Shown piece by piece: positions 3,725 to 22,854 of a stretch of DNA of 38,420 nucleotides. A program made the position numbers and the translations under genes. Within the stretch, counting starts at the first letter, position 1, and every line of letters starts with the position of its first letter. Source of the stretch: Acidimicrobiia bacterium (GTDB lineage: Bacteria; Actinomycetota; Acidimicrobiia; Spongiisociales; UBA5794); contig JALVQZ010000125.1 in the NCBI GenBank assembly GCA_027036355.1, positions 1 through 38,420 on the forward strand. The letters run 5' to 3'. The notes under the pieces are model-generated. The model made no database searches. It had not been told where the DNA came from and worked only from the letters and a program-made list of their open reading frames with translations.

Positions 3725-3754
3725 AGGGCACCGCGCCACGGTGACCGTGGGCCC

Positions 3755-3781
3755 TTACGTCGGGCCCGGCGGAGCCGACAG
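3755..3781 (+). promoter_or_regulatory. sigma28/FliA-type promoter upstream of flbD-motAB-fliL
   Basis: cTTAC-N15-GCCGACAG. Confidence 0.6.
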
Positions 3782-3809
3782 ATCAGGTGCAAGCGACGAA
3801 CGATGAGCA

Positions 3810-3848
3810 CATCCAAAGGGAATTGGATGAGCGTGCACAAGGAGGTGC
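3810..3848 (+). promoter_or_regulatory. Two CsrA-type ANGGA hairpins in flbD leader, the second enclosing the SD
   Basis: CATCCAA-AGGGAA-TTGGATG (3810-3829) and GCAC-AAGGAG-GTGC (3835-3848). Confidence 0.7.
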
Positions 3849-3851
3849 CGA

Positions 3852-4115
3852 GTGATCCCCGTATCACCGCTCCAGGGTCGATCGATCCTGGTCAACGCGG
3901 ATCTCATCGAAGCCATCGAACGTGTTCCCGATACCGTCGTCGTCCTCGCCAACGGCCGGCGGATGTTCGTCACCGACTCCCCTGAGGAGATCATCGACCG
4001 GATCCGCCACGTTCGCGCCTCGATCTTGGCCTACGCCGACGACATCCTCGATCACGGTACCGCCGAAGTCGTTGCGTTGCATGGGATCGACGGGATCCCG
4101 GGGGACCTCCGATGA
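3852..4115 (+). CDS. flbD: Flagellar FlbD family protein, copy 1
   Basis: MI.V..L.G...VNADLIE.IE..PDTVV.L.NG motif; lies before motA. Confidence 0.9.
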   Translation: MIPVSPLQGRSILVNADLIEAIERVPDTVVVLANGRRMFVTDSPEEIIDRIRHVRASILAYADDILDHGTAEVVALHGIDGIPGDLR

Positions 4116-4894
4116 CGACCATCCTGGGTATCGTCATCGCCCTTCTCGCGATCGTCGTGGCGACGATCATGGACGGGAACTCGTTCGGCGCGCTCATCGG
4201 CCCTTCGTCGCTGGTGCTCGTTCTCGTCGGGTCGCTCGGCGTGTCGATGTCGGGGTTCCAGATGGACGACCTGAAGAAGCTGCCGAAGGTCATCATCTAC
4301 TCGTTCACCGGCAAGGAACCGGACGCCTCGGCCACCGTCGACACGCTGATGGAAGCCGCCGAAGTGGCCCGCAAGGAAGGGGTGCTCGCCCTCGAATCGA
4401 AGCTCGAAGGGATCGAAGACCCCTTCCTCCGCAACGGTCTGCAGTCGGTCGTCGACGGCGTCGACGCCGACACGATCAGGGACATGCTGGAGATCGACAT
4501 CCAGGCGCTCGACGATCGGCACCGCACCGGCATGAACATCGTCAAGGCGATGGGTGGCTACGCCCCGACCATGGGCATGATCGGGACCGTCGTGGGGCTC
4601 ATCAACATGCTGGGCAACCTCTCGGACCCTGCCCAGCTCGGGCTCGGCATGTCCGTGGCCCTGTTGACGACCCTGTACGGCGTCATCTTCGCCAACCTCG
4701 TGTTCCTCCCCATCTCCGCCAAGCTCGAACGCTTGAACGCCCTCGAACTGGCACAGCGTGAGCTCGCCATGGACGGCATCCTCGCCATTCAGGCCGGAGC
4801 CAGCCCCCGGCTCCTCGTCGAGCGCCTCGAGTCCTACCTCATCCCCGAGGCCCGCGTGGGCCACCAGGAACGTTCGAAGAGGAAGGCCGCCTGA
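4112..4894 (+). CDS. motA: Stator A subunit (MotA/PomA/MotP family)
   Basis: ARKEGVLALE, APTMGMIGTVVGL, ALLTTLYG; four TM segments. Confidence 0.95.
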   Translation: MTTILGIVIALLAIVVATIMDGNSFGALIGPSSLVLVLVGSLGVSMSGFQMDDLKKLPKVIIYSFTGKEPDASATVDTLMEAAEVARKEGVLALESKLEGIEDPFLRNGLQSVVDGVDADTIRDMLEIDIQALDDRHRTGMNIVKAMGGYAPTMGMIGTVVGLINMLGNLSDPAQLGLGMSVALLTTLYGVIFANLVFLPISAKLERLNALELAQRELAMDGILAIQAGASPRLLVERLESYLIPEARVGHQERSKRKAA

Positions 4895-5772
4895 TGGCCA
4901 GGAACCGCCGACCACCCGAAGAGGACAATCCGCTGCGGTGGCTCACCACCTACGGCGACGTCGTCACCCTGCTGCTGGCGTTCTTCGTGATGCTGTACGC
5001 CATCTCGAGGGTCGACGAGCAGAAGTTCATGCTCTTCGTCGCCGGCCTCCAGGATCCCTTCGGCAACGAAGCGATCGCCAACGGGCTCCTCGCCCAGGGC
5101 ACCGGGATCGTGGGGGGAGCGTACGGCGACAAGCCCGTCGGCGACCGGGAGGGCTTCGACGGCGACGGTCTGCTCGACGGGCGGCCCGAGGTCGACACGA
5201 AGGTCGCCGCCGACGTGCCGACCGAAGACCAGATCGACGAGGAGGACGTCCGCGACTACCTCACGTCCTTGGAGGACCTGGTGCGGGTGCGCGACGCCGT
5301 CAAGGAGGCGCTTCAGGCCGCGGGGTTCGACGAGAACGTGGACTTCGAACTCGGCGCCCGAGGCCTGGTGATCGCCGTCGCCACCGACGACGTCCTGTTC
5401 GCCAGCGGATCGGCCGCGTTCGGTGCCCAGGGGCGGGAGATCATCGCCGCGATCGCGCCGAGCCTCGACTCCTTCGAGAACCAGATCCTCGTCGAGGGAC
5501 ACACCGACTCGGTGCCCCTGCACGGGCGGGGCGGCTACGACAACTGGAACCTGTCTGCCGATCGCGCCCTGGCGGTCTTGAAACTGCTCGTCGACGAGTA
5601 CGGGATCGATCCGCAGCGGCTGGCTGCCACCGGATACGGCGAGTTCAGACCTCGGGCTTCGAACGAGACGGAGGAAGGCAAAGCGAAGAACCGCAGGGTC
5701 GAGCTGGTCGTCGTTGCCGACGTTGCCCGGCTCCAGGACACCACGAACGGAGGTGATGGCGATGGTGGCTGA
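4894..5772 (+). CDS. motB: Stator B subunit (MotB/PomB/MotS family)
   Basis: WLTTYGDVVTLLLAFFVML TM; OmpA-like domain EGHTD, NWNLSADRA, NRRVE. Confidence 0.95.
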   Translation: MARNRRPPEEDNPLRWLTTYGDVVTLLLAFFVMLYAISRVDEQKFMLFVAGLQDPFGNEAIANGLLAQGTGIVGGAYGDKPVGDREGFDGDGLLDGRPEVDTKVAADVPTEDQIDEEDVRDYLTSLEDLVRVRDAVKEALQAAGFDENVDFELGARGLVIAVATDDVLFASGSAAFGAQGREIIAAIAPSLDSFENQILVEGHTDSVPLHGRGGYDNWNLSADRALAVLKLLVDEYGIDPQRLAATGYGEFRPRASNETEEGKAKNRRVELVVVADVARLQDTTNGGDGDGG

Positions 5773-6235
5773 GGTCGCCGAGGCGCCGGCACAAGAAGCG
5801 CCCAAGAAAGGGAAGAAGAAGCTCATCATGATCGTCGTACCGGTCGTGGTGCTCGTCGGGGTCGCCGGCTTCTTCATGTTCGGGAAGGGCGGCGGTGACG
5901 AGACCGCCGTCACGACGACCACCGTCGTCGAGATCGGCTCGGTCATCGAAGGGGAGACGTTGACGGTGAACCTGGCCGATCCCGGCTCACCTCGCTACGC
6001 CCGAGTGACCTTCGCCGTGGTGCTCCCGATGGGCGCCGACTCGGGGATCGTGGGGATGAAGATCGCGCTGCTCAAGGATCGGGCGGTCAGCATCATCTCG
6101 GCGTACACGTCCGACATGCTCCTCGGCGACGGCGGCCTGGATCGCCTCCGAAGCGAGCTGACGGCGGCTGCCGGCGAGATCTGGGACGAGACCGAGGTGA
6201 TGGAGGTCGTGTTGACCGAGGTCCTCGTTCAGTGA
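5762..6235 (+). CDS. fliL: Flagellar basal body protein FliL
   Basis: KKGKKK plus single TM, then TVNLAD; GGAGG SD upstream; position after motB. Confidence 0.85.
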   Translation: MVAEVAEAPAQEAPKKGKKKLIMIVVPVVVLVGVAGFFMFGKGGGDETAVTTTTVVEIGSVIEGETLTVNLADPGSPRYARVTFAVVLPMGADSGIVGMKIALLKDRAVSIISAYTSDMLLGDGGLDRLRSELTAAAGEIWDETEVMEVVLTEVLVQ

Positions 6236-6278
6236 GCGGCGGCGTGGGTTCCTCCGAGCCGCGACGGCCGACGGGTCC

Positions 6279-6305
6279 TTCATCTGGAGGCGTCCCTGCC
6301 GACGG
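6279..6305 (+). promoter_or_regulatory. sigma28-type promoter upstream of fliM
   Basis: cTTCA-N15-GCCGACGG. Confidence 0.55.
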
Positions 6306-6339
6306 TTGATGGCGTGACACCTTCGACCGGAGGCACTCC

Positions 6340-7272
6340 GTGACCGCAGCACCGACGACCGACACGCCGCTCCGACCGGGCGACCAGGTCACCGTCGCGC
6401 CGTTCGACTTCCGAGCCACCGGCGCGATCGCCAAGGAGCTGGTCCGGCGCCTCGAGCTGCTACACGAGGTCTTCTCCAGGGCGCTCGGCAACGAGCTGTC
6501 CAACGCTCTCCGCTCGCTCGTCCGCATCGAACTGATGTCGGTCGATCAGGTGAGCTACGACGAGTACGTGCGGTCGGCGCCGAACCCGACCGTGCTCTGC
6601 TCCATGGCCACCCCACCGCTGCCCGGTTCGGTACTGATCGAGATGAGCACGCAGATGGCGCTCAACCTCGTCGATCGGCTCCTCGGTGGCAACGGGACCT
6701 CCACGATCGTCCGGCGCCCCACCGCCCTGGAGACGTCCATCATCGAGGACCTGCTGCAGATGTTCGTCGAGCCGGTCCGTCAGACCCTCGAGCCGCTCAT
6801 CGAGATCGAGCCCGCCCTCGGCGGGATCGAGTACAACCCGCACTTCCTGCAGGCCGCCAACCCGTCGGACATGATGACGATCCTGTCGTTCTCCTTGTCG
6901 ATCGTCCAGGGTGTCCGCGCCGAGGGTCTGCTCACCGTCGCGTACCCGCCCGCGGTCATCGATGCGATCACCGAACGGGCCGACGCGGCCGTCGCCGACG
7001 ATCGCCTCCCGGCGTTGGAGGCCGGCATCCCCGATTCCCCCGTCGCCGACCGTCTCGTCGACGCACCGGTGACCCTCAGCATCGAGCTGCGACCGACCAC
7101 GGTCGCCGCCGCCCAGCTCGCCGAACTGCGACCCGGCGACGTGCTCACCCTCGACCACCGGGTCGACGAGGAGGTCGTCGGGCGGGTCGCCGAGATGGAG
7201 ATCCTCCGCGGCCGGATCGGCCGCAACGGCAAGAACCTGGCCCTACAGCTGACACAGTGGAGCGCACGATGA
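6340..7272 (+). CDS. fliM: Motor switch protein FliM (no N-terminal LSQxEID motif)
   Basis: PFDFR, VDQVSYDEYVRS, DRLLGG.G, RRPTALE and C-terminal SpoA domain (LRPGDVL). Confidence 0.9.
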   Translation: MTAAPTTDTPLRPGDQVTVAPFDFRATGAIAKELVRRLELLHEVFSRALGNELSNALRSLVRIELMSVDQVSYDEYVRSAPNPTVLCSMATPPLPGSVLIEMSTQMALNLVDRLLGGNGTSTIVRRPTALETSIIEDLLQMFVEPVRQTLEPLIEIEPALGGIEYNPHFLQAANPSDMMTILSFSLSIVQGVRAEGLLTVAYPPAVIDAITERADAAVADDRLPALEAGIPDSPVADRLVDAPVTLSIELRPTTVAAAQLAELRPGDVLTLDHRVDEEVVGRVAEMEILRGRIGRNGKNLALQLTQWSAR

Positions 7273-8039
7273 CCACCGACACGATCACCCCCGACATCGA
7301 GGCGACCCTCGCCACGATCGCATCCGACGCCGTCCAGGCATGGGCCACCGCGGCCGGCCTCGACATCGACGCCGCCACCCCGGTCGTCGGCGGCACCGTC
7401 GATCTCGATCCGGACGCCGCGGTCGCCGTCGCCGCCCAACTCGCCGGAGCGGTCCAAGGAGCGCTGGTCGTCGTCGTCCCCGCCGACGCCATGCCCGATC
7501 AGGAAGCGGCGCTCGCCGGGATCGTCACCGCCGCCGCCGAGGCCCTCGGCCGCGCCGCCGGCGGCCCGGTCGAGGTCGAAGGTTCGGGCATCGTGGCCGC
7601 CGCCGAGGTCCTCTCCGCCGGCGGACATCACGTTGCCATCGAGATCGCCGGTGCGCAGGGCTCGTACCTGATGCACTGGCTGCTGGAGCCCACGCTCGTG
7701 GCCCGGATCGGGGACGGTCCGGTCGCGTCCCCCGGGTCACCGAGCGTGGCTCCGGCATCGTTCCCGGACCTCGCCGGAGCTCCGCCGGCGTCCGCGTCGC
7801 TGCGGGAGCTCAGCGTCCTGGCGGACGTCCAGATGGAGGTCAGCGTCGAACTGGGCCGCACCCAGCTACGGGTCAGGGACCTCCTCGCCCTCGTCGAGGG
7901 CAGCATCATCGACCTGGATCGAACCGCCGACGCCGAGGTCTCGGTGTTCGTCAACGGCACCCTGATCGCCAAGGGCGACGTGGTCGTCGTCGACGAGGAG
8001 CTCGGCGTTCGGATCACCGAGGTCGTCGCTCGGCCATGA
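7269..8039 (+). CDS. fliN: Motor switch protein FliN with long N-terminal extension
   Basis: C-terminal SpoA domain LADVQMEVSVELGRT...VNGTLIAKGDVVVV..LGVRIT; ATGA overlap. Confidence 0.9.
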   Translation: MTTDTITPDIEATLATIASDAVQAWATAAGLDIDAATPVVGGTVDLDPDAAVAVAAQLAGAVQGALVVVVPADAMPDQEAALAGIVTAAAEALGRAAGGPVEVEGSGIVAAAEVLSAGGHHVAIEIAGAQGSYLMHWLLEPTLVARIGDGPVASPGSPSVAPASFPDLAGAPPASASLRELSVLADVQMEVSVELGRTQLRVRDLLALVEGSIIDLDRTADAEVSVFVNGTLIAKGDVVVVDEELGVRITEVVARP

Positions 8040-8422
8040 ACGTCGGCGAGGTCATCGGCCGGACGATCCCGGCGCTCCTGCTGGTGCTGGCGGTCCCGCT
8101 CGGGGCGTACTGGTGGGCTCGCCGATCCGGCACGACCGGCACCAGCGCGGATCTCCGCATCGGCGCGAAGGCGGCCTTCGGGAAGAACCTGTGGGTCGCC
8201 GTGGTCGAGGTCGACGACCGACGGTTCCTCGTCGGCGTCGGCGAGGGAGGGATCAACGTCATCTCGGAGCTGGATCGGACCCCGGCGCCCGCGGTGGCAC
8301 ACGGCACGGAAGCCGACGAAGGAACGGAACGGCCAGGGATGGGCCTCGTCCGCCGGTTGCAGCACATGACGGTGCGCAAACCGACGAGGACCTCCTGGAG
8401 GCCGCGTGTTCCCACCCCGTAG
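8036..8422 (+). CDS. fliO: Flagellar biosynthesis protein FliO
   Basis: N-terminal TM, then VVEVDDRRFLVGVGEGGINVISEL; lies between fliN and fliP. Confidence 0.8.
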   Translation: MNVGEVIGRTIPALLLVLAVPLGAYWWARRSGTTGTSADLRIGAKAAFGKNLWVAVVEVDDRRFLVGVGEGGINVISELDRTPAPAVAHGTEADEGTERPGMGLVRRLQHMTVRKPTRTSWRPRVPTP

Positions 8423-9254
8423 GGTCGCAGCCTTCCTCCTGATCGTCGCCGCGTTCGTCGGGATGCCGAGGGGCGCCGCCTTCGCCCAGGTTCCCGACCA
8501 GCCGCCCGCCGCCGGTGTCGTCGGCGTCCCCGAGAACCAGACGGTCCTGACCGTCCCCGACGTTCCCGAGACACCGGCGGTGCCCGATGTCGGCATCAGC
8601 ATCGACTCGGAGGACGGAGGCATCTCGAAGGCGGTCCTCATCGTCATCATGCTCGCCCTGGCCTCGGTGGTGCCGTTGCTGCTGCTCCTCACGACGTCGT
8701 TCACGCGGTTCGTCGTCGTCCTCGGCCTGACGCGCAACGCCGTCGGGATCCAGAACATCCCGCCCACCCAGGTCCTCATCGGCTTGGCCTTCTTCCTGAC
8801 CTTGTTCGTCATGGGACCGATGCTGTCCACCATCAAGGCCGACGCGGTGGATCCGCTCCTCGCCGGCGAGATCGACCAGTCCACGGCCATCGAGATCGCC
8901 ACCGAGCCCCTCCGCAGCTTCATGCTCGACCAGACCCGCGAAGAGGACCTCGCCCTGTTCATCGGTCTCGCCGGCAAGGACAAGCCCGAGACGCCCGAGG
9001 ACGTGTCGCTGACGACGCTGATCCCGGCCTTCGTCGTGTCGGAGCTGACGACGGCGTTCATGATCGGATTCCTGATCTACGTGCCGTTCCTCATCATCGA
9101 CCTGATCGTCTCGGCGGTCCTGATGGCCCTGGGGATGGTGATGTTGCCTCCGGTGTTCATCTCCCTGCCGCTGAAGCTACTCCTGTTCGTCCTCGTCAAC
9201 GGCTGGGCGCTGATCATCGGCTCGGTCGTCCAATCGGTCGGAGCGGTGTCGTGA
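8406..9254 (+). CDS. fliP: Export gate protein FliP
   Basis: TSFTRFVVVL..RNA, PP.QVLIGLA, LIPAFVVSEL, GMVMLPP.ISLPLKLLLFV. Confidence 0.95.
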   Translation: MFPPRRVAAFLLIVAAFVGMPRGAAFAQVPDQPPAAGVVGVPENQTVLTVPDVPETPAVPDVGISIDSEDGGISKAVLIVIMLALASVVPLLLLLTTSFTRFVVVLGLTRNAVGIQNIPPTQVLIGLAFFLTLFVMGPMLSTIKADAVDPLLAGEIDQSTAIEIATEPLRSFMLDQTREEDLALFIGLAGKDKPETPEDVSLTTLIPAFVVSELTTAFMIGFLIYVPFLIIDLIVSAVLMALGMVMLPPVFISLPLKLLLFVLVNGWALIIGSVVQSVGAVS

Positions 9255-9517
9255 CCGACGCCCAGGTCCTCCAGATCGCCCAGGACGCGTTCGTCATCGC
9301 CGGCAAGATCGCCGGCCCCGTGCTCATGGCGGCCCTCATCGTCGGGGTCGTCATCTCCGTGATCCAGACGATCACCCAGATCCAAGAGATGACCCTGACC
9401 TTCGTCCCGAAGCTGCTCGCCGCCGGCCTCGTCGTGTTGCTCGGCGGCAACTGGATGATCGGTGAGATGACGAGCTGGGTCCGCGCCCTGTGGGGACTGA
9501 TCCCGGGTATCGGATGA
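9251..9517 (+). CDS. fliQ: Export gate protein FliQ
   Basis: Q..TQIQEMTLTFVPK. Confidence 0.95.
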   Translation: MTDAQVLQIAQDAFVIAGKIAGPVLMAALIVGVVISVIQTITQIQEMTLTFVPKLLAAGLVVLLGGNWMIGEMTSWVRALWGLIPGIG

Positions 9518-10281: not shown

Positions 10282-10290
10282 CTCCGTTCC

Positions 10291-10317
10291 TAAACCCCAC
10301 CCGTTCGATGCCGACTG
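10291..10317 (+). promoter_or_regulatory. sigma28-type promoter upstream of flhB
   Basis: cTAAA-N15-GCCGACTG. Confidence 0.7.
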
Positions 10318-10320
10318 GAC

Positions 10321-10359
10321 CGGTGCCCATGGAGCGGGCACCGAACGCCATGGAACGGC
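10321..10359 (+). promoter_or_regulatory. Two CsrA-type ATGGA hairpins in flhB leader
   Basis: CGGTGCCC-ATGGAGC-GGGCACCG (10321-10343) and GCC-ATGGAAC-GGC (10347-10359). Confidence 0.65.
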
Positions 10360-10383
10360 TGCGAACGCCGACGCGGAGCCACC

Positions 10384-14598: not shown

Positions 14599-14834
14599 CC
14601 GTGGGGATGCGCCAGATCTCGGCCATCTTGGGTCTGTTCGCGCTCGCCCCGATCGGGTTGATGCTGATCAAGGGTCAGCTGTCGCTTCCCGAGGCGGCGA
14701 CCCGCGCCGGGATCGTTCTGGTCGCGGTGATGGTCGTCACCTGGCTGGGGCGTCTCGGCGTCGCCATCCTCGCTCGCTCGATGGAGGCGGCCGTTCCCCG
14801 ACGCCGGGCCTCCGACGTCGTCGTCGAGGACTGA
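14595..14834 (+). CDS. Small two-TM membrane protein of unknown function
   Basis: ATGA overlap and GGAGG SD; two hydrophobic helices with a PRRRASD tail; 79 aa. Confidence 0.7.
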   Translation: MTVGMRQISAILGLFALAPIGLMLIKGQLSLPEAATRAGIVLVAVMVVTWLGRLGVAILARSMEAAVPRRRASDVVVED

Positions 14835-14840
14835 CCGGCG

Positions 14841-16337
14841 TCACAGATCCTCGAGGACCGCGACGACGGTGGGATCGAATCGCGATCCGGCTTCGTCCTT
14901 GATCCTGGTCAGGGCCTCGGGGGTCGGATCCGGAGCCGAGGACCAGCGATCGAGCGCATCGGCGACGGCGAGGATGCGGGCCTCGAAGGGGATGTCGGTC
15001 CCTTCGGTCCCGTCGGGGAAGCCCGTGCCGTCCCAGTGCTCGTGGTGGCCTGCGATGGTGTCGGCCACGACGTTCCCGGCCGGGATCCGGACGATGTCGG
15101 CTCCCAGCCGCGGATGGGACCGGTAGGCCTCCGACCCGTCGTCGCCTTCCGGGAACCGCTCGTCGGCGGGAACGTGGATCTTGCCGAGATCGTGGAGCCG
15201 GGCGGCGAGGCGGACCGCCGCCAGGCGGCGTCCTTCCAACCCGAGGCGTTGGGCGAGGTCGGCGACGATCCGCTCCACCCGCAGCCCGTGCCCGGGCCCC
15301 GACGGATCGTCCTGTTCCACGACGTCGACGGCCTGGAGCAGGGCTTCGAGCTCGGTGGTGGCGGAGAAGACCCGGGTGAGGCTGTCGGCGCCGACGATGC
15401 GCTCGCCCAGGCTCCCGTCGACGCACGCGGCGAGTCCCCGCTCGGCGAGCTCCCGGACCGTGGCCACGTCGGAGCCGGTCTCCGGCCCGGCGTGGCCCAT
15501 CGCCAGGACGAGCGGCGCCGAACGGTCGGGGGCGAAGGTCGACGCGATCGACGACATCTCGTGTCCCAACGACGCGAACTCGTCGGCGGCGAGGATCTCG
15601 GCGAGGACGGCGAACTCGTTGTCGCCGACCGAGAAGATGTCGGCGCCTCGGATCCGGCAGGCCTGCTGCATCTGGGATCCGAGCCGCCGCTTGAGGAGCT
15701 TGGTGGCTTCGCGTCCCAGGCGCCCCGTCGGCGAGCCGAGGACCTTCACGGCGCCGTAGCGGGGAACGGTCCCGGCTTGACTGAGCGCGGCGAGACGTTC
15801 GGCGAGGGCGGCCGGGCCGGGCAGGTTCGATGCCGGATCCCGGTCGAACACCACCGGCGCCGCGTCGCCGTTGCCGAGTCGTTCGAGACGTTGCGCGTAC
15901 GTTTCGAGCACGTCCTCCTCGGGCGAGCCGTCCTCGACGTGGAGCCGGATCGCCTCTTCGTTGCCTTCGGCCACGATGGCGGTTCCGCCGCACGCCATCA
16001 GCGCCGCCGCCGTCGCTTCGCCGGCGGGATGGGTCAGGACGATGACCGGGATGTCGGTCGTCTCCATGGCGCAGATCTGCGAGACGGCCTCCGGCGGCGC
16101 ATAGCGGGTGGCCACGACGACGGCCGCGGCGGTGCTCTTCGCCTCGTCGTCGTCGACCAGCTCGTAGCCGTAGGCCGCCAGACGGGACCTGAGGGGATCG
16201 GGCGCCCACGGCGAGTAGAGGGTCAGGGTGGGGATCTCGACGGCCGGTTCGGTCTCGGGAGACGCCGGAGCGGATTCGGCCTCTTCGGCCGCGGCGGTCT
16301 CCGGCGGGGCCTCGAGCTCGGTTGCGGATCCTGCCAC
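14841..16337 (-). CDS. HD-GYP phosphodiesterase with N-terminal receiver-like and degenerate GGDEF domains
   Basis: GTG start after AAGGAGG; LHDLGK, HHEHWDGTGFP and ARILAVAD; central RDPASNLP...VGDNEFAVL. Confidence 0.85.
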   Translation of the reverse strand: MAGSATELEAPPETAAAEEAESAPASPETEPAVEIPTLTLYSPWAPDPLRSRLAAYGYELVDDDEAKSTAAAVVVATRYAPPEAVSQICAMETTDIPVIVLTHPAGEATAAALMACGGTAIVAEGNEEAIRLHVEDGSPEEDVLETYAQRLERLGNGDAAPVVFDRDPASNLPGPAALAERLAALSQAGTVPRYGAVKVLGSPTGRLGREATKLLKRRLGSQMQQACRIRGADIFSVGDNEFAVLAEILAADEFASLGHEMSSIASTFAPDRSAPLVLAMGHAGPETGSDVATVRELAERGLAACVDGSLGERIVGADSLTRVFSATTELEALLQAVDVVEQDDPSGPGHGLRVERIVADLAQRLGLEGRRLAAVRLAARLHDLGKIHVPADERFPEGDDGSEAYRSHPRLGADIVRIPAGNVVADTIAGHHEHWDGTGFPDGTEGTDIPFEARILAVADALDRWSSAPDPTPEALTRIKDEAGSRFDPTVVAVLEDL

Positions 16338-16340
16338 GGC

Positions 16341-16377
16341 GCACCTCCTTGTTGCCGACCCGTTGCATCCGTGCAAC
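16341..16377 (-). promoter_or_regulatory. CsrA-type hairpins in HD-GYP leader
   Basis: Minus strand GTTGC-ACGGAT-GCAAC (16362-16377), then CAAGGAGGTGC over the SD. Confidence 0.7.
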
Positions 16378-16395
16378 CCGGCGGATCTGCCGACC

Positions 16396-16422
16396 CTGTC
16401 GGCGGGAGCCTGGTGCGGTGAA
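16396..16422 (-). promoter_or_regulatory. sigma28-type promoter for the HD-GYP gene
   Basis: Minus strand cTTCA-N15-GCCGACAG. Confidence 0.55.
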
Positions 16423-16435
16423 GGTCTCGGTCACG

Positions 16436-16462
16436 TAAACATCGCCCCGTTCCGGCCGACAG
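16436..16462 (+). promoter_or_regulatory. sigma28-type promoter for FlgN paralog
   Basis: TAAA-N15-GCCGACAG. Confidence 0.7.
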
Positions 16463-16472
16463 GAACGGGGAC

Positions 16473-16559
16473 ATGAGCCACCTCATCGCACCTGCGTCGA
16501 TCCCGGCGGGCGCCTCCCGCCGGTCGTGGCGCGGTCTCACGTGGAGGAGCGCCCGATGA
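16473..16559 (+). other. Possible 28-aa upstream ORF coupled to FlgN paralog
   Basis: MSHLIAPASIPAGASRRSWRGLTWRSAR; its TGA overlaps the downstream ATG (ATGA, 16556-16559). Confidence 0.25.
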
Positions 16560-17095
16560 CCCTCGGTGACGCGGTGTCCGGCTTGATCGGTCCACATCAG
16601 GTGCCGCCACCGTCACCGGCGACCGCCGGTGGCGCCGAGGAGCGGATGCGAGCACTGCTCGCGTTGCTCGACGAGGAGCGGAGCATGCTCGAGAGGCTCG
16701 TGCACAAGCTGGCGGCGGCGACGGTCCTGGCCGAGGCCGCCGAGGACGTCTACCTCCTCAGGGCTGCCGACGAGGTCGTGGAAGCCGAGGAGGACCTCGG
16801 TGCCATGGAACTGGCGAGGGCGATGATGGTCGCCGACATCTGCGATCTGCTCGGCTTCGCCAACGAACTCACCCTCACCCAGCTCACCCAGGTCGCGCCG
16901 GAGGGTCTCAGGGAACCGCTCGAGCGTCGCCGGAGCGAACTCCTCGCCCAGGTCGACGACGTCAACCGGCTCAGGGAACGAGGTCGCGGCGCCGTCGAGG
17001 AGCGGCTGGCGCGGATCGAGCAGGGACTGTCCGGCCTGGAGGCCGCGATGGAAGACGGACGCTACGAGCCGCCGTCGTCGCGACGCTTCACCTGA
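16556..17095 (+). CDS. FlgN-like export chaperone, second paralog
   Basis: GGAGG SD; aligns by eye with 20019-20537 (ER..L..KL; TL..L...APE.LRE). Confidence 0.7.
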   Translation: MTLGDAVSGLIGPHQVPPPSPATAGGAEERMRALLALLDEERSMLERLVHKLAAATVLAEAAEDVYLLRAADEVVEAEEDLGAMELARAMMVADICDLLGFANELTLTQLTQVAPEGLREPLERRRSELLAQVDDVNRLRERGRGAVEERLARIEQGLSGLEAAMEDGRYEPPSSRRFT

Positions 17096-17319
17096 TCGGG
17101 TCGGGTCTCGGCGAAGCGGCGTTTGGCCTCGGCAGCATGCTCGACGGCGGCCAGGTTCTCCCGTTTGACCTGCTCGTACACCTCGGCCCGATGGACCTGG
17201 ACGCTGCGGGGAGCGTCGATCCCGATCCGCACCTGACCGCCGCGAACCTCGACGATCGTGATGACGATGTCGTTCTGGATGACGATGGATTCTCCGGGGC
17301 GACGGGTGAGGACGAGCAT
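17062..17319 (-). CDS. csrA: Translational regulator CsrA
   Basis: MLVLTRRPGESIVI..DI.I.IVEVRGGQVRIGIDAPRSVQVHRAE with the C-terminal extension typical of FliW-paired CsrA. Confidence 0.97.
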   Translation of the reverse strand: MLVLTRRPGESIVIQNDIVITIVEVRGGQVRIGIDAPRSVQVHRAEVYEQVKRENLAAVEHAAEAKRRFAETRPDQVKRRDDGGS

Positions 17320-17714
17320 CAGGCGGCCGTCAGTTCGAATCGGGCCCTGGCGGGATAGCCGCTGTCGGAGAGCACCACCTGCCGGCCGATGCGCTCGGCG
17401 GCATTGACGACGAACGGGCCGAGGAGGTTGAGGTAGAGCGCGCCTTCGTCTTCGGCGTCGAAGGTCACCGAACAGAACACCGTGGCATCTTCGGGTCGCT
17501 CGATGGAGAGATCGGCCTCGTCCTCGGACGAGAGCTCCAGGGTGTAGTCGGGCACGAACAGCCACGGCACGGTGACCAGCATGGCGATCTCGGGATCGTC
17601 GACCGAGCGCAGCTCGTAGAACGCCGAGTCGGGCGCGAGCTCGACGAGCACGAACCGTTCCAGCTCGGGGAACCCGGGGATACCGCCCGGGAAGCGGATG
17701 ATCTTGTCTTCCAT
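17319..17714 (-). CDS. fliW: Flagellar assembly factor / CsrA antagonist FliW
   Basis: IRFPGGIPGFP, PW.FVPDY, NLLGP.VVN....GRQVVL; TGATG coupled to csrA. Confidence 0.93.
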   Translation of the reverse strand: MEDKIIRFPGGIPGFPELERFVLVELAPDSAFYELRSVDDPEIAMLVTVPWLFVPDYTLELSSEDEADLSIERPEDATVFCSVTFDAEDEGALYLNLLGPFVVNAAERIGRQVVLSDSGYPARARFELTAA

Positions 17715-17769
17715 GGTCACCGATCTGCAGTGGGAGCGGTCGGGGTGCAGGGTAGCGCCGAGATCTCCG

Positions 17770-18654
17770 TCATCGAAGGAAGTCGACGAGGGACGCCTGG
17801 CTCGATCGAGCGAACACCGCCATCGTCGTCTGGTAGGCGCTTTCCCTGAGCTTGAGATCCATGACCGCCTCGGAGATGTCGACGTCCTCGATCTGGGAGA
17901 GCTGACTGCGAAGCGTGTTGATCTCTTCCAGGAACCGATCCTGGGCGGCGTCGATGCGTCGTCCGGCCGATCCGAGGCGGGCGAGGGCGCCGAGGTTGCG
18001 TTCGAGGGCGGCGTCGATGTCGGCGATGGCGGCTCCCATCGCCGACTGATCGCCGGCCAACGCGGCCGCTTCGAAGTCGTCGAGCACCGTGAAGATGTCG
18101 GTGCCCGCGTTGAAGCCGAAGACGTCGTCCGCGGTGACGTTCACCTGGACGGTCTCGTCGTCGTCGATGCGACGCATCACCGCTCCCGTGTCGCCGGTGA
18201 AGGTCCACGTTCCGGCGATGTTGGTGACGGGGGCACCGGCCCCGAACCCGCCGAAGATGCGGCGGCCCTGGTGCTGGGCGTTGGCGATCTCGACGAGCTG
18301 GTCGCGGATCTCGGCCACCTCGATGGCGATGGCCTGCTGCTCCTCGGCCGATGCGAACGACGCCCCGGTCACGGCCAGTTCCTTGGCCCGTTGGAGCCGC
18401 TCGGACACCGTCTGCAGTTTCGAGTCCGCCACGTTGACCCACATCTCCCCGTCGGCCGCGTTCGTGGCGGCCTGCTCCTTGACGCGGAGCGCCGATCGCA
18501 GCTCCATCGCCTGGCTCATGCCGATCGGGTCGGCGGAGGGCCGATCGAACGACTTGCCGGTGGCGAGGCGCCGCTGCGCGTCGGCCACGGCCGACTGGCC
18601 GGCGCCCATCCGTCGGATGGCTTCGTTGAACTGCCAGCGGTGGGTGATCCTCAT
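17770..18654 (-). CDS. flgL: Hook-filament junction protein FlgL
   Basis: MRIT, LATGK...RPSADP, IEDVD..EA, SLVDFLR. Confidence 0.93.
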   Translation of the reverse strand: MRITHRWQFNEAIRRMGAGQSAVADAQRRLATGKSFDRPSADPIGMSQAMELRSALRVKEQAATNAADGEMWVNVADSKLQTVSERLQRAKELAVTGASFASAEEQQAIAIEVAEIRDQLVEIANAQHQGRRIFGGFGAGAPVTNIAGTWTFTGDTGAVMRRIDDDETVQVNVTADDVFGFNAGTDIFTVLDDFEAAALAGDQSAMGAAIADIDAALERNLGALARLGSAGRRIDAAQDRFLEEINTLRSQLSQIEDVDISEAVMDLKLRESAYQTTMAVFARSSQASLVDFLR

Positions 18655-18657
18655 GCG

Positions 18658-20019
18658 CTACCTCCCCACGAGCCCGGTCCGGTTGACGAGCGTGTCGAGG
18701 AGCTGATCGACGGCGGTCATGACCCGCGCCGCCGCTTCGTAGGAACGCTGGTACCGGATGAGGTCCGCCATCTCCTCGTCGAGGGACACGCCTTGGCGCG
18801 ACTCGCGGATGTTCTGAGCGGTGCGGAGCAGGTTCTGGGACGACTCGGCGTTGGTGGCCGCCAGCCGAGCGCGGCTGCCCACGTCGGTGACGACCTGGCG
18901 GAAGGCGCCGTCGATCGTCGTCGTTCCCGAGAGGGCGACCGCGGCGTCGCGGAGCGCCGCGATGGCGTCGGCGTTGGTGCCGTCGAAGGCCGGAACCGGC
19001 GGCCCGGGGTTGCCGGCGGCGGCGATCTGGGAAGGATCGGTGACGGCGACCGCGATGGTGGAGGCCGCCGCCCCCGGCGTGTAGGTCAGGAGGGGACCGC
19101 CGGCCGCTCCCGACGGGGTGAACCCTGCGGCGTGAGCGGCGTTGATGGCATCGGCCAGGTCGGCGGCGAAGGTGTCGAGGCCGGACATGAGCGCCGGAGC
19201 GTCGTTCGTGAGGAACTCGGCGTAGCCGGCCAGCGCCCCGCCGGGGTTCAACGGGTTGCCCGAGTCGTCGGTGAACGCGTAGGAACCGTCGACGGCGATC
19301 TGGTGGACGGTGCTGCCGTCGACGAGCGCCAGCCCGTTCAACGAGACCCGAACGGTTCCGTCGCCGTTGTCGCTGATCGCGACCCCGGCGAGTTCGGTGA
19401 GCCGGTCGAGGATCCGATCCCGGGAGTCGAGGAGGTCGTTGGGGGCGCCCACGGTGGCCGCATCGAGGATCTGCACGTTGAGCGGCCCGAGGTCGCGCAG
19501 GAGCGTGTTGACCTCACCGACGGTGTCGCGCAACTCGACGCCCGCCCGATCGATCTGGGCGGTCCACGAGCCAGCCAGGTCCCTGATCCGGGCGGTCACG
19601 GCGTCCATGGCCGCGATGGTGTCGAGGCGGGCCGCGGTGTCGGGCGGATCGAGCGCGAGCTGCTCGAACGACGCCCACAGATCCCCGAGGGCGCCGGTGA
19701 TCCCTCCCTCGGGCTCCATCGTCATCTCGTCCATGGTGCCCAGCAGTCCCGACATCGCGGCGAACCTCCCGGCGACCTCCGAGTTGGCCCACACCCGGCG
19801 ATCCGCGAACCGGTCCCGGGCTCGGGAGATGTCGATCACGTCGACCCCCGTGCCGATCGGGCCGACCGGGCTCTGGTAGGTGGAACGGCTCGCCAGTTCG
19901 ACACGCTGGCGGGTGTAGCCGGCGGTCCCGGCGTTGGCGACGTTGTTGGAGGCCGTGTCGGTGCCCGCCTGGGCGGCCTGGAGGGCGGAGAAGGCGGTGT
20001 AGAGGCTGATCATGCTCAT
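18658..20019 (-). CDS. flgK: Hook-filament junction protein FlgK
   Basis: SNNVANA.TAGYTRQRV, NDLLDSRD, GVSLDEEMADLIRYQRSYEAAARV. Confidence 0.95.
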   Translation of the reverse strand: MSMISLYTAFSALQAAQAGTDTASNNVANAGTAGYTRQRVELASRSTYQSPVGPIGTGVDVIDISRARDRFADRRVWANSEVAGRFAAMSGLLGTMDEMTMEPEGGITGALGDLWASFEQLALDPPDTAARLDTIAAMDAVTARIRDLAGSWTAQIDRAGVELRDTVGEVNTLLRDLGPLNVQILDAATVGAPNDLLDSRDRILDRLTELAGVAISDNGDGTVRVSLNGLALVDGSTVHQIAVDGSYAFTDDSGNPLNPGGALAGYAEFLTNDAPALMSGLDTFAADLADAINAAHAAGFTPSGAAGGPLLTYTPGAAASTIAVAVTDPSQIAAAGNPGPPVPAFDGTNADAIAALRDAAVALSGTTTIDGAFRQVVTDVGSRARLAATNAESSQNLLRTAQNIRESRQGVSLDEEMADLIRYQRSYEAAARVMTAVDQLLDTLVNRTGLVGR

Positions 20020-20537
20020 CAGAGCACCTCGTCGATCCGCGCCGGGTTCGCCTGTCGCTCGGAGCGGTGGCGACCGGAGGCGTCGTAGAGGCCCGGATCG
20101 CCGTCCCCGTCGGCGAGGATCCCGAAGCTGCCGCCGATCCCCGACAGGCCGAGGGTGGCCAGGCGTCGGTTCTCCTTGGTGACCGATTCGATCTCCCCGG
20201 TGAGGGCGAGGAAGCGGTTGCGATGGTCCTCGAACACCTCGCGCAGCTCCTCGGGTGCGTTGACGGCGAGGTAGGCGAGGGTCACCGACGCGGCGGGAAC
20301 ACCCCATTCGGCGGCGAGGCTCGAGACGATCTCCGCCCGGTCCGTCTCGGTCTTGCGGATCTCGGCGATGATCCGATCCACCTCCCCGATCGCCGGTGCG
20401 ATGAACCGCTGGTCGTCGGCGTTGAGCATGAGGTTGGCGGTCACCAGCTTGAACAGGAGGTACTCCATGAGACGGCGCTCGTACCACAGGATGTCTGCGA
20501 GACGCGTCAACTGCTGGAGGCGGAGCTGTGGATCCAT
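20019..20537 (-). CDS. flgN: Export chaperone FlgN (actinobacterial type)
   Basis: ILWYERRLMEYLLFKL, EDHR..FL; directly upstream of flgK. Confidence 0.85.
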   Translation of the reverse strand: MDPQLRLQQLTRLADILWYERRLMEYLLFKLVTANLMLNADDQRFIAPAIGEVDRIIAEIRKTETDRAEIVSSLAAEWGVPAASVTLAYLAVNAPEELREVFEDHRNRFLALTGEIESVTKENRRLATLGLSGIGGSFGILADGDGDPGLYDASGRHRSERQANPARIDEVL

Positions 20538-20545
20538 CGTGGTTC

Positions 20546-20572
20546 CGGTCGGCCGTCGAGACCGCCGCTTAA
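20546..20572 (-). promoter_or_regulatory. sigma28-type promoter for flgN-flgK-flgL-fliW-csrA
   Basis: Minus strand cTTAA-N15-GCCGACCG, 8 nt before the flgN ATG. Confidence 0.7.
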
Positions 20573-20609
20573 GGAGGAACGGGGCGCCGCAGGGACGTTG
20601 CTCCTTAAG
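20568..20609. repeat. 14-bp inverted repeat spanning both divergent -35 elements
   Basis: CTTAAGGAGGAACG-N14-CGTTGCTCCTTAAG, 13/14 match. Confidence 0.8.
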
Positions 20610-20631
20610 TTCGGCGGCGAGCTGCCGAGGT
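20605..20631 (+). promoter_or_regulatory. sigma28-type promoter for degenerate GGDEF gene
   Basis: cTTAA-N15-GCCGAGGT. Confidence 0.65.
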
Positions 20632-20645
20632 AGGTAGAGGTATAT

Positions 20646-20672
20646 CGATGGAACGTGCCGTCACGGAACGGC
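20646..20672 (+). promoter_or_regulatory. CsrA-type sites in GGDEF leader
   Basis: CG-ATGGAA-CG (weak stem) and GCCGT-CACGGA-ACGGC (20657-20672). Confidence 0.55.
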
Positions 20673-20691
20673 CGAGCTCAGGGGAGTCGAC

Positions 20692-21348
20692 ATGAACGGT
20701 GGAACGAACGGACCCGCGGGGATCCCGATGAACGGATCCACCGCCTCGGCCCAGGAGGCGATGGAACGGATCGCCGCGCTCGAGGAGATCATCGCCGGCC
20801 AGCGGGCCGAACTCGGTCTGCTCCGCCTGCAGCTCGAGATGCTGTCCGCGACCGATGTGATCACGGGCCTGCCCAACTTGACCGGCATCATGCAGACCCT
20901 CGAGAAGCAGCTCGCTCGCCATCGTCGGACGGCCGAGCCGTTCGGGATCATGCTGATCGAAGCCGACGGCATCGAAACGACCGAGGGCGCGGGCCAAGAG
21001 GCCCTCCACGACGCGTTGCGCCACTGCGGAGCGATGATCTCGGCGGCGCTGCGCCAGTCCGATACGGTCGGGCGGATCGACGAGCGGACCTTCGCCGCCG
21101 TCCTGCCCGATCTGAGCCGCGACGGTGCGGGCGTGGTGATGGGCAGGATCGACGCCAACCTCCGGACGATGCCTCCCGGCCCGATCGACGCCCCGACCCG
21201 CCTCACCCCGCGTCTGTCGGTCGTGCTGATCGACGGCGCCTTCGCCGGCGACGCCACCGATCTGATGGAGGGCATCAACCGCCTCCGCGTCGAGGCGAAG
21301 CCCGGAGAGCCCACGATCATCGAATCGTCGGACCTCGCCGCCTCCTGA
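20692..21348 (+). CDS. Degenerate GGDEF-domain protein (GGDEF changed to DERTF) with intact RxxD I-site
   Basis: Coiled coil, then TDVITGLPN, and RQSD-TVGRI-DERTF-AAVLP. Confidence 0.85.
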   Translation: MNGGTNGPAGIPMNGSTASAQEAMERIAALEEIIAGQRAELGLLRLQLEMLSATDVITGLPNLTGIMQTLEKQLARHRRTAEPFGIMLIEADGIETTEGAGQEALHDALRHCGAMISAALRQSDTVGRIDERTFAAVLPDLSRDGAGVVMGRIDANLRTMPPGPIDAPTRLTPRLSVVLIDGAFAGDATDLMEGINRLRVEAKPGEPTIIESSDLAAS

Positions 21349-21455
21349 CCGACGCGAGGCATCGGAGACCGTCTCGACGGTCGTGCGTTCCTGGTCACGG
21401 CCGGCCCGCCGCGGGTGCCGGCGACCGTGGTCGCCTCCTCGCCCCACGTTTCCGC

Positions 21456-21482
21456 TTAACCGGCCGTGGTGACGGCCGACGG
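21456..21482 (+). promoter_or_regulatory. sigma28-type promoter upstream of flgE
   Basis: cTTAA-N15-GCCGACGG. Confidence 0.7.
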
Positions 21483-21497
21483 GACCCGGCGAGCGGA

Positions 21498-21591
21498 ACG
21501 GAAGACCGGCCGCACGCTCGTACCAGCAGCGCTCCACGGATCGGAGCCGATCCTCTCTAGGGACGGAGACGACCATCACGAAGGAGTGATG
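21498..21591 (+). promoter_or_regulatory. Tandem CsrA-type ANGGA hairpins in flgE leader
   Basis: ACGGA 21498; GCTCC-ACGGATC-GGAGC 21531-21547; TCTC-TAGGGACG-GAGA 21554-21569; CATCAC-GAAGGA-GTGATG 21574-21591 enclosing the SD. Confidence 0.72.
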
Positions 21592-21596
21592 CGCCG

Positions 21597-22823: not shown

Positions 22824-22854
22824 TCTCGATCTCGACCCTTGATGGGAGGCACGC

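Follow-up and report, generated by a model that had tools for sequence, protein, structure and literature searches.

Predicted CsrA Sites in Sigma-28-Type Flagellar Leaders of an Acidimicrobiia Bacterium

The Flagellar Gene Cluster and Its csrA–fliW Pair

The 38,420-nt stretch of DNA analyzed here (the window) is contig C125 of an Acidimicrobiia genome (G000), which is a draft of 2.99 Mb with 69% G+C. An earlier note on this DNA, made from the sequence alone, had claimed that the leaders of five genes or operons (flbD-motAB, flhB, an HD-GYP gene, a degenerate GGDEF gene, and flgE) carry ANGGA motifs, mostly in the loops of short hairpins, and that these are sites for the RNA-binding regulator CsrA. 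The present analysis deals with these leaders and with the presumed reader of their hairpins. Genes were identified by Pfam scans together with our own gene caller, which is based on third-codon-position G+C content (GC3) and codon usage and which called 3070 genes over the genome (92% coding). The window turned out to carry a large flagellar cluster. It starts with fliI, a fliJ-like gene, an SLT-domain gene, a long gene, and flgD, which are followed, after a gap of 127 nt, by flbD-motA-motB-fliL-fliM-fliN/Y-fliO-fliP-fliQ-fliR and, after a further gap of 102 nt, by flhB-flhA, two further genes, and the HD-GYP gene on the opposite strand. Next come a gene at positions 16556-17095, the genes csrA-fliW-flgL-flgK-flgN on the minus strand, and the degenerate GGDEF gene, whereas flgE, a second flbD, and two-component and CheA-like genes form the end of the cluster. 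The gene names used in the earlier note are correct according to the Pfam scans and to motif reading, whereby the HD-GYP protein shows the HD motif plus HHEHWDGTGFP and the degenerate GGDEF domain reads EADGI where its motif should be. The closest flgE loci in public genomes belong to metagenome-assembled genomes of Acidimicrobiia (best identity 70%), in agreement with the phylum that the earlier note had assumed. DNA of the window is contained in metagenome runs from hydrothermal vents, and among the runs listed there were no RNA runs that contain it.

Within the gene order flgN-flgK-flgL-fliW-csrA, the two regulatory genes adjoin each other:

17062..17319, minus strand: csrA (85 amino acids), presumed reader of the sites; PF02599, 92.3 bits, only match in the genome
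17319..17720, minus strand: fliW, presumed CsrA antagonist; PF02623, 114.9 bits, only match in the genome

Solved CsrA chains can be aligned with the RNA-binding core of this CsrA (residues 1-55), and the VHR(A/E)E(V/I)Y segment is part of the aligned region. The protein matches solved chains with an E-value of 2e-15 and the FliW-bound CsrA 5dmb with 7e-14, and its length of 85 amino acids agrees with that of the FliW-bound type (5dmb).

GGA Hairpins in the Leaders

All four hairpins that the earlier note had quoted were found at their places in the sequence, and the number of ANGGA motifs on the sense strand, given there as two to five per leader, was 2 for flbD, 2 for flhB, 2 for HD-GYP, 4 for GGDEF, and 5 for flgE. 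The following elements were located in the leaders, together with their behavior in minimum free energy (MFE) and centroid folds and with the Shine-Dalgarno (SD) sequences:

3810..3829, plus strand: flbD leader hairpin CATCCAA-AGGGAA-TTGGATG, GGA in the loop; forms in the MFE and the centroid fold
3835..3848, plus strand: flbD SD hairpin GCAC-AAGGAG-GTGC, with the SD AAGGAGG in the loop; GTG start at 3852
10321..10343, plus strand: flhB leader hairpin 1, CGGTGCCC-ATGGAGC-GGGCACCG, located at the predicted 5' end or close to it; forms when folded
10347..10359, plus strand: flhB leader hairpin 2, GCC-ATGGAAC-GGC
16362..16377, minus strand: HD-GYP leader hairpin GTTGC-ACGGAT-GCAAC; forms when folded
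16341..16351, minus strand: HD-GYP SD CAAGGAGGTGC; GTG start at 16337
20657..20672, plus strand: GGDEF leader hairpin GCCGT-CACGGA-ACGGC, a weak candidate; forms when folded
21531..21547, plus strand: flgE leader hairpin GCTCC-ACGGATC-GGAGC, from the sequence and the strict-hairpin scan
21559..21567, plus strand: flgE leader tandem AGGGACGGA
21574..21591, plus strand: flgE SD hairpin CATCAC-GAAGGA-GTGATG; forms in the MFE and the centroid fold; ATG at 21597

Overall, the MFE or centroid folds contained both flbD hairpins, flhB hairpin 1, and the HD-GYP, GGDEF, and flgE SD hairpins, as well as those of two leaders on other contigs, which precede flagellin and a flgB-like gene. In all five leaders, as well as in the flagellin and flgB-like ones, a hairpin loop contains a GGA, which is mostly part of A(N)GGA. 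The sequence CAAGGAGGTGC, which had been noticed at the ribosome-binding sites of both flbD and HD-GYP, is indeed common to them and is found at flagellin (contig C92) as well. Of 2916 called genes only 6 are preceded by its SD context ACAAGGAGG, and flagellin, flbD, and HD-GYP account for three of them. The proposed arrangement of one upstream site and one site over the SD was found for flbD (GGAs ~22 nt apart), HD-GYP (~24 nt), and flgE, and was not found for flhB and GGDEF, the SD of the latter being GGGGAG and not ANGGA. In flbD, HD-GYP, and flgE the spacing between the upstream loop and the GGA embedded in the SD amounts to ~20-50 nt. CsrA dimers bridge sites that are 10-63 nt apart.

Since GGA is the core of an SD sequence, it could also be that the loops serve as SD-like standby or enhancer sites that recruit the 30S subunit, or as decoy SDs, without any protein. 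Three leaders have very strong SDs (AAGGAGGTG), and in flbD and flgE the loop of a small hairpin exposes the SD, which would suit such a role. However, the upstream loops (ACGGAT, ATGGAT, ATGGAGC, AGGGAA) are complementary to the anti-SD over only ~3-4 nt, and it is A-N-GGA rather than GGAGG that is conserved, so that we regard standby sites as quite improbable.

Searches for other known elements gave negative results. Rfam covariance models yielded no match at gathering score over the window, and a permissive Rfam scan of positions 3600-21700 gave only 3 sub-threshold matches (E-values 0.67-2.6), none of them in a leader. In the same region 5 terminator-like sites were found, none of which coincides with a leader hairpin. 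A further accumulation of motifs was noticed at the 3' end of fliO, ~60-100 nt upstream of the fliP start (8406), where four ANGGA lie within 40 nt (8306-8345) and end in the hairpin GGCC-AGGGATG-GGCC (8331-8345). A GGA hairpin is kept at this place in 5 of 8 relatives (0.51 expected), even where the encoded peptide differs, the version of G107 being GGGCC-ATGGACC-GGCC. This region may be a candidate intra-operon CsrA site ahead of fliP.

Flagellin and flgB-Like Leaders

The flagellin leader on contig C92, which is the expected target of CsrA, was used as a positive control and has by its sequence the same hairpin-plus-SD layout. It contains the hairpin GTCGAC-ATGGAT-GTCGAT a few bases past the -10 box, plus the SD ACAAGGAGGTGC, and it fits the ACA..GGAUGU core of RUACARGGAUGU, the consensus obtained for CsrA by SELEX as given in PMC7652899. 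The layout is kept in G001, G059, G007, and G003. The genome has what characterizes a flagellin-FliW-CsrA module, namely fliW beside csrA in a late flagellar operon and a flagellin leader with predicted CsrA sites. The flagellin gene itself runs off the contig end; in G001 there are two tandem flagellin copies with identical leaders.

The flgB-like gene on contig C110 shows a weak Pfam match below the cut-off, and synteny in relatives places it between flagellin and fliI. Its leader (L016:195-300) contains a sigma-28-type box and, behind it, the hairpin CGAG-A[AC]GGAT-CTCG, which is kept in 6 of 6 genomes. After this hairpin there is a long stem with the 5' arm AAGGAAGAGC, which covaries between genomes, and then a T-rich tract. 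By its sequence, the stem looks like a terminator or attenuator that a GGA-binding protein could control.

Sigma-28-Type Promoters Upstream of the Hairpins

In the promoter consensus of sigma-28 factors (FliA/WhiG/SigD), a -35 box resembling TAAA is separated by ~15 nt from a -10 box resembling GCCGATAA. Each of the five leaders has a box of the type CTTAAC-N14/15-GCCGAC(N)G upstream of its hairpin:

3753..3781, plus strand: flbD-motAB promoter CCTTAC-N15-GCCGACAG, from the pattern scan; kept in G001, G020, G007, G003, and G059
10289..10317, plus strand: flhB promoter CCTAAA-N15-GCCGACTG in the fliR-flhB spacer, from the pattern scan
16396..16423, minus strand: HD-GYP promoter CTTCAC-N14-GCCGACAG, recognized by eye, with a -35 box one mismatch from the pattern
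20603..20631, plus strand: promoter of the degenerate GGDEF gene, CCTTAA-N15-GCCGAGGT, from the pattern scan
21454..21482, plus strand: flgE promoter GCTTAA-N15-GCCGACGG, from the pattern scan

For comparison with the rest of the genome, a set of 1689 upstream intergenic regions of at least 30 nt, capped at 250 nt, was used (hereafter, the 1689 leaders). The pattern NNT[AT]AN-N13-16-GCCGANNN occurs in 17 of them, and nine of the 17 are flagellar (flbD, flhB, the 16556 gene, flgN, GGDEF, flgE, the flgB-like gene, flagellin, and the sigma-factor gene beside flagellin). In relatives, a GCCGA box is present in 12 of 12 orthologous fliR-flhB spacers, and the HD-GYP leaders have GCTTAT, TCTAAT, or TTATCC boxes followed by GCCGA. 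The flgE box CTTAAC...GCCGACGG is also found in G001 and L045, with CTTAAG variants in G020 and G003, and is not evident in the flgE leader of G007. Sigma-70-like promoters were not found in 3600-21700. Because the sigma-28-type boxes are present, whereas this region has no sigma-70-like promoter and no terminator-like site at the hairpins, the hairpin leaders are plausibly true 5' untranslated regions of a FliA/WhiG-type regulon, with start sites that are predicted by a promoter pattern defined on these same leaders. The typical features of a sigma-28 regulon, boxes upstream of motility genes and a sigma gene (regions 2-3-4) beside flagellin, are both present.

On contig C92 (L003) the flagellin gene (2-520, minus strand) and the gene of the FliA/WhiG-like sigma factor with regions 2, 3, and 4 (776-1642, plus strand) are divergent. 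Both have sigma-28-type boxes, which suggests that the sigma factor is autoregulated. In the divergent region between flgN and GGDEF there is a perfect 9-bp inverted repeat (20568-20609; CTTAAGGAG...CTCCTTAAG), whose two CTTAAG ends are the -35 boxes of two opposed sigma-28-type promoters. The fliM leader (6277-6339) is of a different kind; it has the sigma-28-type box CCTTCA-N15-GCCGACGG and no ANGGA, and its SD GGAG is apparently paired in CGGAG-GCA-CTCCG beside the GTG start. Outside the window, the gene of a GAF-GAF-GGDEF protein (C185:1880-3841, minus strand) has the box CCTAAA-N16-GCCGATAC and no ANGGA in its leader, and might possibly be a second cyclic di-GMP (c-di-GMP) gene in the sigma-28 regulon.

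Frequency of GGA Hairpins in the Genome

Purine-rich, SD-like leaders in a genome of 69% G+C could yield GGA hairpins by chance, which would then have been picked afterwards, and simple counting does not discriminate against this explanation. The ANGGA density per 100 nt was 0.495 on the sense strand of leaders, 0.384 on their antisense strand, and 0.300 genome-wide. Compared with the leader density, the ANGGA numbers stand out for GGDEF (P=0.008) and flgE (P=0.009) and are unremarkable for flbD (P=0.13), flhB (P=0.09), and HD-GYP (P=0.29). Moreover, 18% of the 1689 leaders have an ANGGA over the SD (last 18 nt), so that two motifs with one over the SD are not unusual in themselves. Raw ANGGA counts were therefore rejected as evidence, as they do not discriminate for three of the five leaders. 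A loose hairpin rule, which asked for a stem of at least 5 and a loop of 4-9 nt with any GGA, was rejected as well, because it was matched by 186 of the 1689 leaders (11%) on the sense strand versus 187 on the antisense strand, i.e., without global enrichment.

A strict rule gave a different result. Perfect stems of at least 5 with ANGGA in a 5-9 nt loop occur in 18 of the 1689 leaders, 4 of which are among the 14 leaders of the flagellar cluster, a group defined by gene content (P=8.5e-6). With A additionally allowed as a closing base, a change made after the HD-GYP and flagellin hairpins had been seen, 25 of the 1689 leaders matched, 7 of them among the 14 flagellar ones (hypergeometric P=2e-10). 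The 25 consist of the five leaders named in the earlier note, the flagellin (C92) and flgB-like (C110) leaders, and 18 others. The comparison with other leaders of the genome, which the earlier note had put forward as a check, gave no distinction by raw counts or the loose rule and an enrichment in flagellar leaders by strict hairpins. The best look-alike outside the flagellar genes is the leader of an SRPBCC/polyketide-cyclase-like gene (C172:7511-7610), with TATGGAA-CGGACA-TTCCATA, four ANGGA, and the SD GGAGGAAGGAAC.

The unremarkable raw counts of flbD, flhB, and HD-GYP, the abundance of loose hairpins on either strand, and the 18 non-flagellar leaders with strict hairpins are in favor of chance. 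The enrichment in flagellar leaders by either strict criterion speaks against it, as do two results on the relatives given below: orthologous leaders have such hairpins about tenfold more often than their own dinucleotide shuffles, which 84 control regions do not, and hairpin 1 of flhB shows covariation. Among the explanations considered here, chance appears to us as the most improbable one.

Conservation in Relatives

The cluster is syntenic in G001 of the same genus (~95% protein identity), in G020 (~75%), and in G007, G003, and G059 (~50-70%), and six other genomes of the class contain it in part. The earlier claim that loops are conserved while stems differ is borne out in these relatives for flbD, flhB, HD-GYP, and flgE, and fails for GGDEF. 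The upstream hairpin of flbD reads TCCCAC-ACGGAC-GTGGGA in G020, CCAA-ACGGAT-TTGG in G059, CCAT-AGGGAT-GTGG in G003, and CGGGC-GGGGA-GCCCG in G007, and the flbD SD hairpin GCAC-A[AC]GGAG-GTGC occurs in seven genomes, being identical in G000, G001, G020, G007, G003, and G059 and GCAC-ACGGAG-GTGC in G107. Two flhB hairpins are present in 11 of 12 orthologous spacers, for instance as the pairs GGCCG-AAGGAA-CGGCC with CGCC-ATGGACC-GGCG and GGCC-ATGGACA-GGCC with GCCG-AAGGAT-TGGC, whereby the position of hairpin 2 holds a GGA hairpin in relatives (e.g., CGCC-ATGGACC-GGCG, CGCC-ACGGACC-GGCG). In 18 of 19 more distant genomes inspected by eye, fliR and flhB are separated by a small spacer at most, and ANGGA is absent at this place; only L144 differs, having ACGGA and AGGGA in a short spacer. 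The HD-GYP hairpin is GTTGC-ACGGAC-GCGAC in G020, CAGGC-ATGGAT-GCCTG in G007, and CGGGC-AAGGAA-GCTCG in G003, and in G007 and G003 there is also an SD hairpin, GCTAC-AAGGAG-GTAGC. For flgE, G001 has the loop ATGGATC, and the other versions are CTCCC-CGGAT-GGGAG (G020), CACCCC-ACGGAG-GGGGTG (G007), GCCCC-AAGGAC-GGGGT (G003), and GACCCC-AGGGAC-GGGGTT (G059). Furthermore, ACGGACGGA is kept at the flgE tandem position in G020, G007, G003, and L045, and the stem of the flgE SD hairpin in G001, G020, and L045. No equivalent of the GGDEF hairpin was found in G020.

A formal test was carried out on 126 nt around the inferred start, with a stem of at least 4, at most 1 G-U pair, a loop of 4-8, and A-N-GGA, whereby the expected counts were taken from each region's own 300 dinucleotide shuffles. 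As the relatives are kin and include the near-identical G001, the counts overstate independence:

flhB: hairpin in 9 of 11 relatives, 0.90 expected
flgE: hairpin in 6 of 8 relatives, 0.58 expected
HD-GYP: hairpin in 4 of 6 relatives, 0.42 expected
flbD: hairpin in 3 of 9, 0.81 expected, some rows being the paralog flbD2 and not the flbD beside motA
12 control genes pooled (fliM, flgN, motA, motB, fliL, flhA, flgK, flgL, fliW, cheA, uvrD, and the 16556 gene): hairpin in 4 of 84, 5.15 expected

For the flhB leader, a covariance model built from 8 seed sequences recovered 10 orthologs, 2 of them outside the seed; four weak matches of its first search (E-values 0.29-0.62) were treated as spurious and dropped. 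The stem covariation that the earlier note had suggested looking for in relatives was detected in these 10 sequences, with a score of 0.226 versus 0.093 +/- 0.031 for shuffled alignments (0 of 500 shuffles as high) and at most 0.089 for slid controls, and with 76.5% of cells paired versus at most 45.5%; the underlying alignment is model-based, was fitted to the given structure, and is hence biased in favor of it. The compensatory changes lie in the inner pairs of flhB hairpin 1. A combination of MAFFT and RNAalifold was rejected for the flhB leaders, as it let hairpin 2 pair with the -10 box and put loops of unequal length out of register. The same register problem arose in the MAFFT alignment of flgE leaders, and the formal pair count covers flhB only.

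The inverted repeats might also be DNA operators where a transcription factor belonging to the flagellar regulon binds. Their position relative to the predicted promoters, 10-60 bp downstream, would be a possible one for repressor sites. However, the half-sites, i.e., the stems, vary between genes and orthologs, whereas the spacer, i.e., the loop, is conserved, which is the reverse of an operator, and there are G-U pairs that keep the stems in RNA only (GTCGAC/GTCGAT, GTTGC/GCGAC). We therefore consider operators very improbable.

In 77 flgE upstream regions from public records, 20 have such a hairpin versus 4.5 expected, and about three-quarters of these 20 loci (15 by record titles) belong to Actinomycetota, among them records of Nitriliruptorales, Kineosporia, and Ilumatobacter, so that, as far as flgE is concerned, the pattern extends beyond this family. 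Two hairpins with ACGGA[CT] loops upstream of flgE were noticed in L049, L051, L060, L080, L086, L087, L106, and others, from Acidimicrobiia, Nitriliruptorales, Kineosporia, and Ilumatobacter (e.g., GTGAGCCG-ACGGAC-CGGCTCAC). The Ilumatobacter-type leader has CGCCCG-AACGGAAA-CGGGCG and CGGC-ATGGAC-GCCG. Co-occurrence of CsrA and flgE hairpins was tried as a test and dropped as uninformative (CsrA in 5/5 genomes without versus 4/5 with hairpins).

The Hairpins as Probable Sites of the Cluster's Own CsrA

Since a single csrA and a single fliW lie in the cluster, the CsrA core is intact, the flagellin leader has the same layout, strict hairpins are enriched in flagellar leaders, and loops persist while stems change, the hairpins on four sigma-28 leaders (flbD, flhB, HD-GYP, and flgE) are likely to be binding sites for the cluster's own CsrA. 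This suggests that CsrA would control much more than flagellin in this organism, and we regard the four as a well-supported predicted set of CsrA sites in a new phylum. The fifth leader that had been proposed, GGDEF, is probably not a conserved member, because in G001, of the same genus, the stem is kept with a loop that lacks GGA (GCCGT-CCGCGA-ACGGC) and the upstream ATGGA is absent as well.

Several observations weigh against CsrA sites even in the remaining four leaders. In the G000 folds, flhB hairpin 2 is out-competed in the MFE structure by pairing with the start-codon region, and the flgE upstream hairpin is missing from it, with an alternative GGA-loop hairpin appearing instead; this hairpin, GGAUC-GGAGCC-GAUCC, competes in the centroid fold. 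The SD of flhB is GCGGAG, without ANGGA over it, and both flhB sites lie upstream. A clear HD-GYP upstream hairpin was not found outside the family (G059, G373, G107), and the GGA in the flgE SD loop is limited to G000, G001, and G020. Among the 25 leaders of the widened rule, the 18 non-flagellar ones precede genes without an evident motility link (WhiB, RelA/SpoT, thiolase, and others), and such hairpins are genome-wide no commoner on the sense (25) than on the antisense strand (26), so that a single hairpin is weak evidence. To this come the later widening of that rule, the kinship of the relatives, and the promoter pattern that was defined on the leaders themselves. CsrA was found in 5/5 Acidimicrobiia genomes without flgE-leader hairpins and in 4/5 with them, and its presence hence does not predict sites. 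Finally, a flagellin-sensing repression of hook and export-gate synthesis does not follow an obvious logic.

Some of these points would also fit functional RNA structures of the sigma-28 leaders that are not read by CsrA, such as 5'-end stabilizers, processing signals, or sites for another GGA-loop protein or a small RNA. The predicted 5' end coincides with or is close to hairpin 1 of flhB and the flagellin and flgB hairpins, there is no ANGGA over the SD of flhB, and CsrA does not track the flgE hairpins. However, the conserved part is the A-N-GGA loop and not the stem, and a pure stabilizer would not need such loop conservation. Moreover, the loops fit the CsrA consensus, the same motif is found over the SD in flbD, HD-GYP, and flagellin, and the cluster encodes CsrA, which is, to our knowledge, the only reader of GGA loops. 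A role of the hairpins apart from CsrA thus seems unlikely to us, and binding by CsrA remains the preferred explanation.

For flbD-motAB, HD-GYP, and flgE, the architecture suggests that a CsrA dimer would hold the upstream GGA loop together with the GGA of the SD and so block ribosome entry on these mRNAs; the loop-SD spacing of ~20-50 nt fits such bridging and occlusion of the ribosome-binding site. In the flhB leader, the two GGA hairpins at the predicted 5' end would perhaps act on mRNA stability or processing. By analogy to Bacillus subtilis and Campylobacter jejuni, FliW that is not occupied by cytoplasmic flagellin would free the mRNAs from CsrA, and synthesis of the stator, export gate, hook, and c-di-GMP phosphodiesterase might in this way follow the secretion status of flagellin. 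The flagellin and flgB-like operon leaders elsewhere in the genome, with the same layout, would extend the set of sites.

Further Features of the Cluster

The hook locus is split. The flgD gene (3299-4115 region of the window) is directly followed by flbD-motAB, flgE lies 17 kb off (21597-23100), and a second flbD paralog (47% identity) follows flgE. This layout is common to G001, G020, G007, G003, and G059, whereas G264, G354, and G249 have the usual flgD-flgE order. The gene at 16556-17095 on the plus strand has no Pfam family and is preceded by a sigma-28-type promoter at 16434-16462. Because of a 29% identity to the FlgN region (tblastn cross-hit), it may encode a second FlgN-like chaperone. 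It is kept in place in G001, G020, G003, G059, and G200.

Comparison With Known CsrA Systems and Implications

The genome resembles B. subtilis with its Hag-FliW-CsrA system in the flgK-flgL-fliW-csrA neighborhood, in the sigma-28/sigma-D-type flagellin promoter, which is predicted here, and in the two GGA sites of the flagellin leader. In B. subtilis, the two GGA sites of the hag leader are placed over the SD and, upstream, in a stem-loop (PMC13443453, PMC7652899). Unlike in this firmicute, where the system is described as acting on hag, the layout is found in the Acidimicrobiia actinobacterium, by sequence, also on the flbD-motAB, flhB, flgE, flgB-like, and HD-GYP leaders.

A flagellum-wide CsrA-FliW regulon with ANGGA loops is already established in C. 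jejuni, and the phylum is the new part here. According to the parts of Dugar et al. (2016; PMC4894983) that we draw on, the mRNAs recovered with C. jejuni CsrA by RNA immunoprecipitation sequencing (RIP-seq) were for the most part flagellar ones of the alternative-sigma classes, flgE among them, ANGGA was located in hairpin loops, and FliW acted as antagonist; sites often comprise one upstream and one over the ribosome-binding site, the flaA structure is backed by compensatory changes, and intra-operon sites occur too. The FliW-type CsrA, the mainly flagellar candidate targets including flgE, and the ANGGA loops of the present genome are alike, and the intra-operon sites may be compared to the fliR-flhB spacer and the fliO 3' end. 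In contrast to the C. jejuni regulon, which was shown by RIP-seq and genetics, the regulon described here is predicted. It also belongs to a different phylum, has a c-di-GMP phosphodiesterase among its candidates, and shows sigma-28-type boxes in front of the majority of flagellar units, as opposed to the RpoN plus FliA of C. jejuni.

As described in PMC7652899, the flhDC leader of Escherichia coli has a pair of CsrA sites at its 5' end, which block RNase E and so protect this end. The flhB leader is similar, as the predicted start is immediately followed by two GGA hairpins and a strong site over the SD is lacking, and its geometry is closer to such activation by 5'-end protection than to SD occlusion; CsrA might thus either repress or activate. 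It differs from flhDC in the gene, the organism, and the RNases, the 5' end is predicted, and read-through from fliR would make the flhB sites internal. CsrA of E. coli moreover represses c-di-GMP synthesis genes (Jonas et al., 2008, as cited in PMC7652899). CsrA is tied in both organisms to c-di-GMP turnover enzymes and the motile/sessile choice, here by prediction; unlike the GGDEF cyclases of E. coli, the conserved candidate is an HD-GYP-type phosphodiesterase under a flagellar promoter. The statement that no CsrA regulon of this breadth is described in Actinobacteria agrees with our full-text literature searches, which found no paper on CsrA targets in the phylum; in the part of a survey of actinobacterial flagella that we refer to, CsrA and FliW are merely listed among the proteins searched for (PMC10746217).

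It is conceivable, though in our view doubtful, that in Acidimicrobiia, and partly in wider flagellated Actinomycetota, FliW-CsrA is not a homeostat of flagellin only and governs most of the sigma-28 flagellar regulon as a post-transcriptional master layer. Such a layer would reach the rod/MS-ring operon via the flgB leader, flbD-motAB, flhBA, perhaps fliP, flgE, flagellin, and the HD-GYP phosphodiesterase, and it would act in at least three ways, by SD occlusion, by binding of 5'-end hairpins, and by control of the terminator-like stem with AAGGA in its 5' arm. If this were true, it would mean, together with C. jejuni, that a flagellum-wide regulon and not flagellin alone is the ancestral job of CsrA.

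The pairing of CsrA with FliW is considered ancestral for a very widespread regulator, whose textbook role in Gram-positive bacteria is flagellin alone. The leaders analyzed here define a sigma-28 promoter consensus for uncultured Acidimicrobiia, and a wider role of CsrA in a deep actinobacterial class is indicated by GGA hairpins that are conserved and covary in the leaders for the hook, the export gate, the stator, and the c-di-GMP phosphodiesterase. Such a role would link the secretion status of flagellin with c-di-GMP signaling, and it would support the Campylobacter-derived view that the original CsrA regulon spanned the flagellum.

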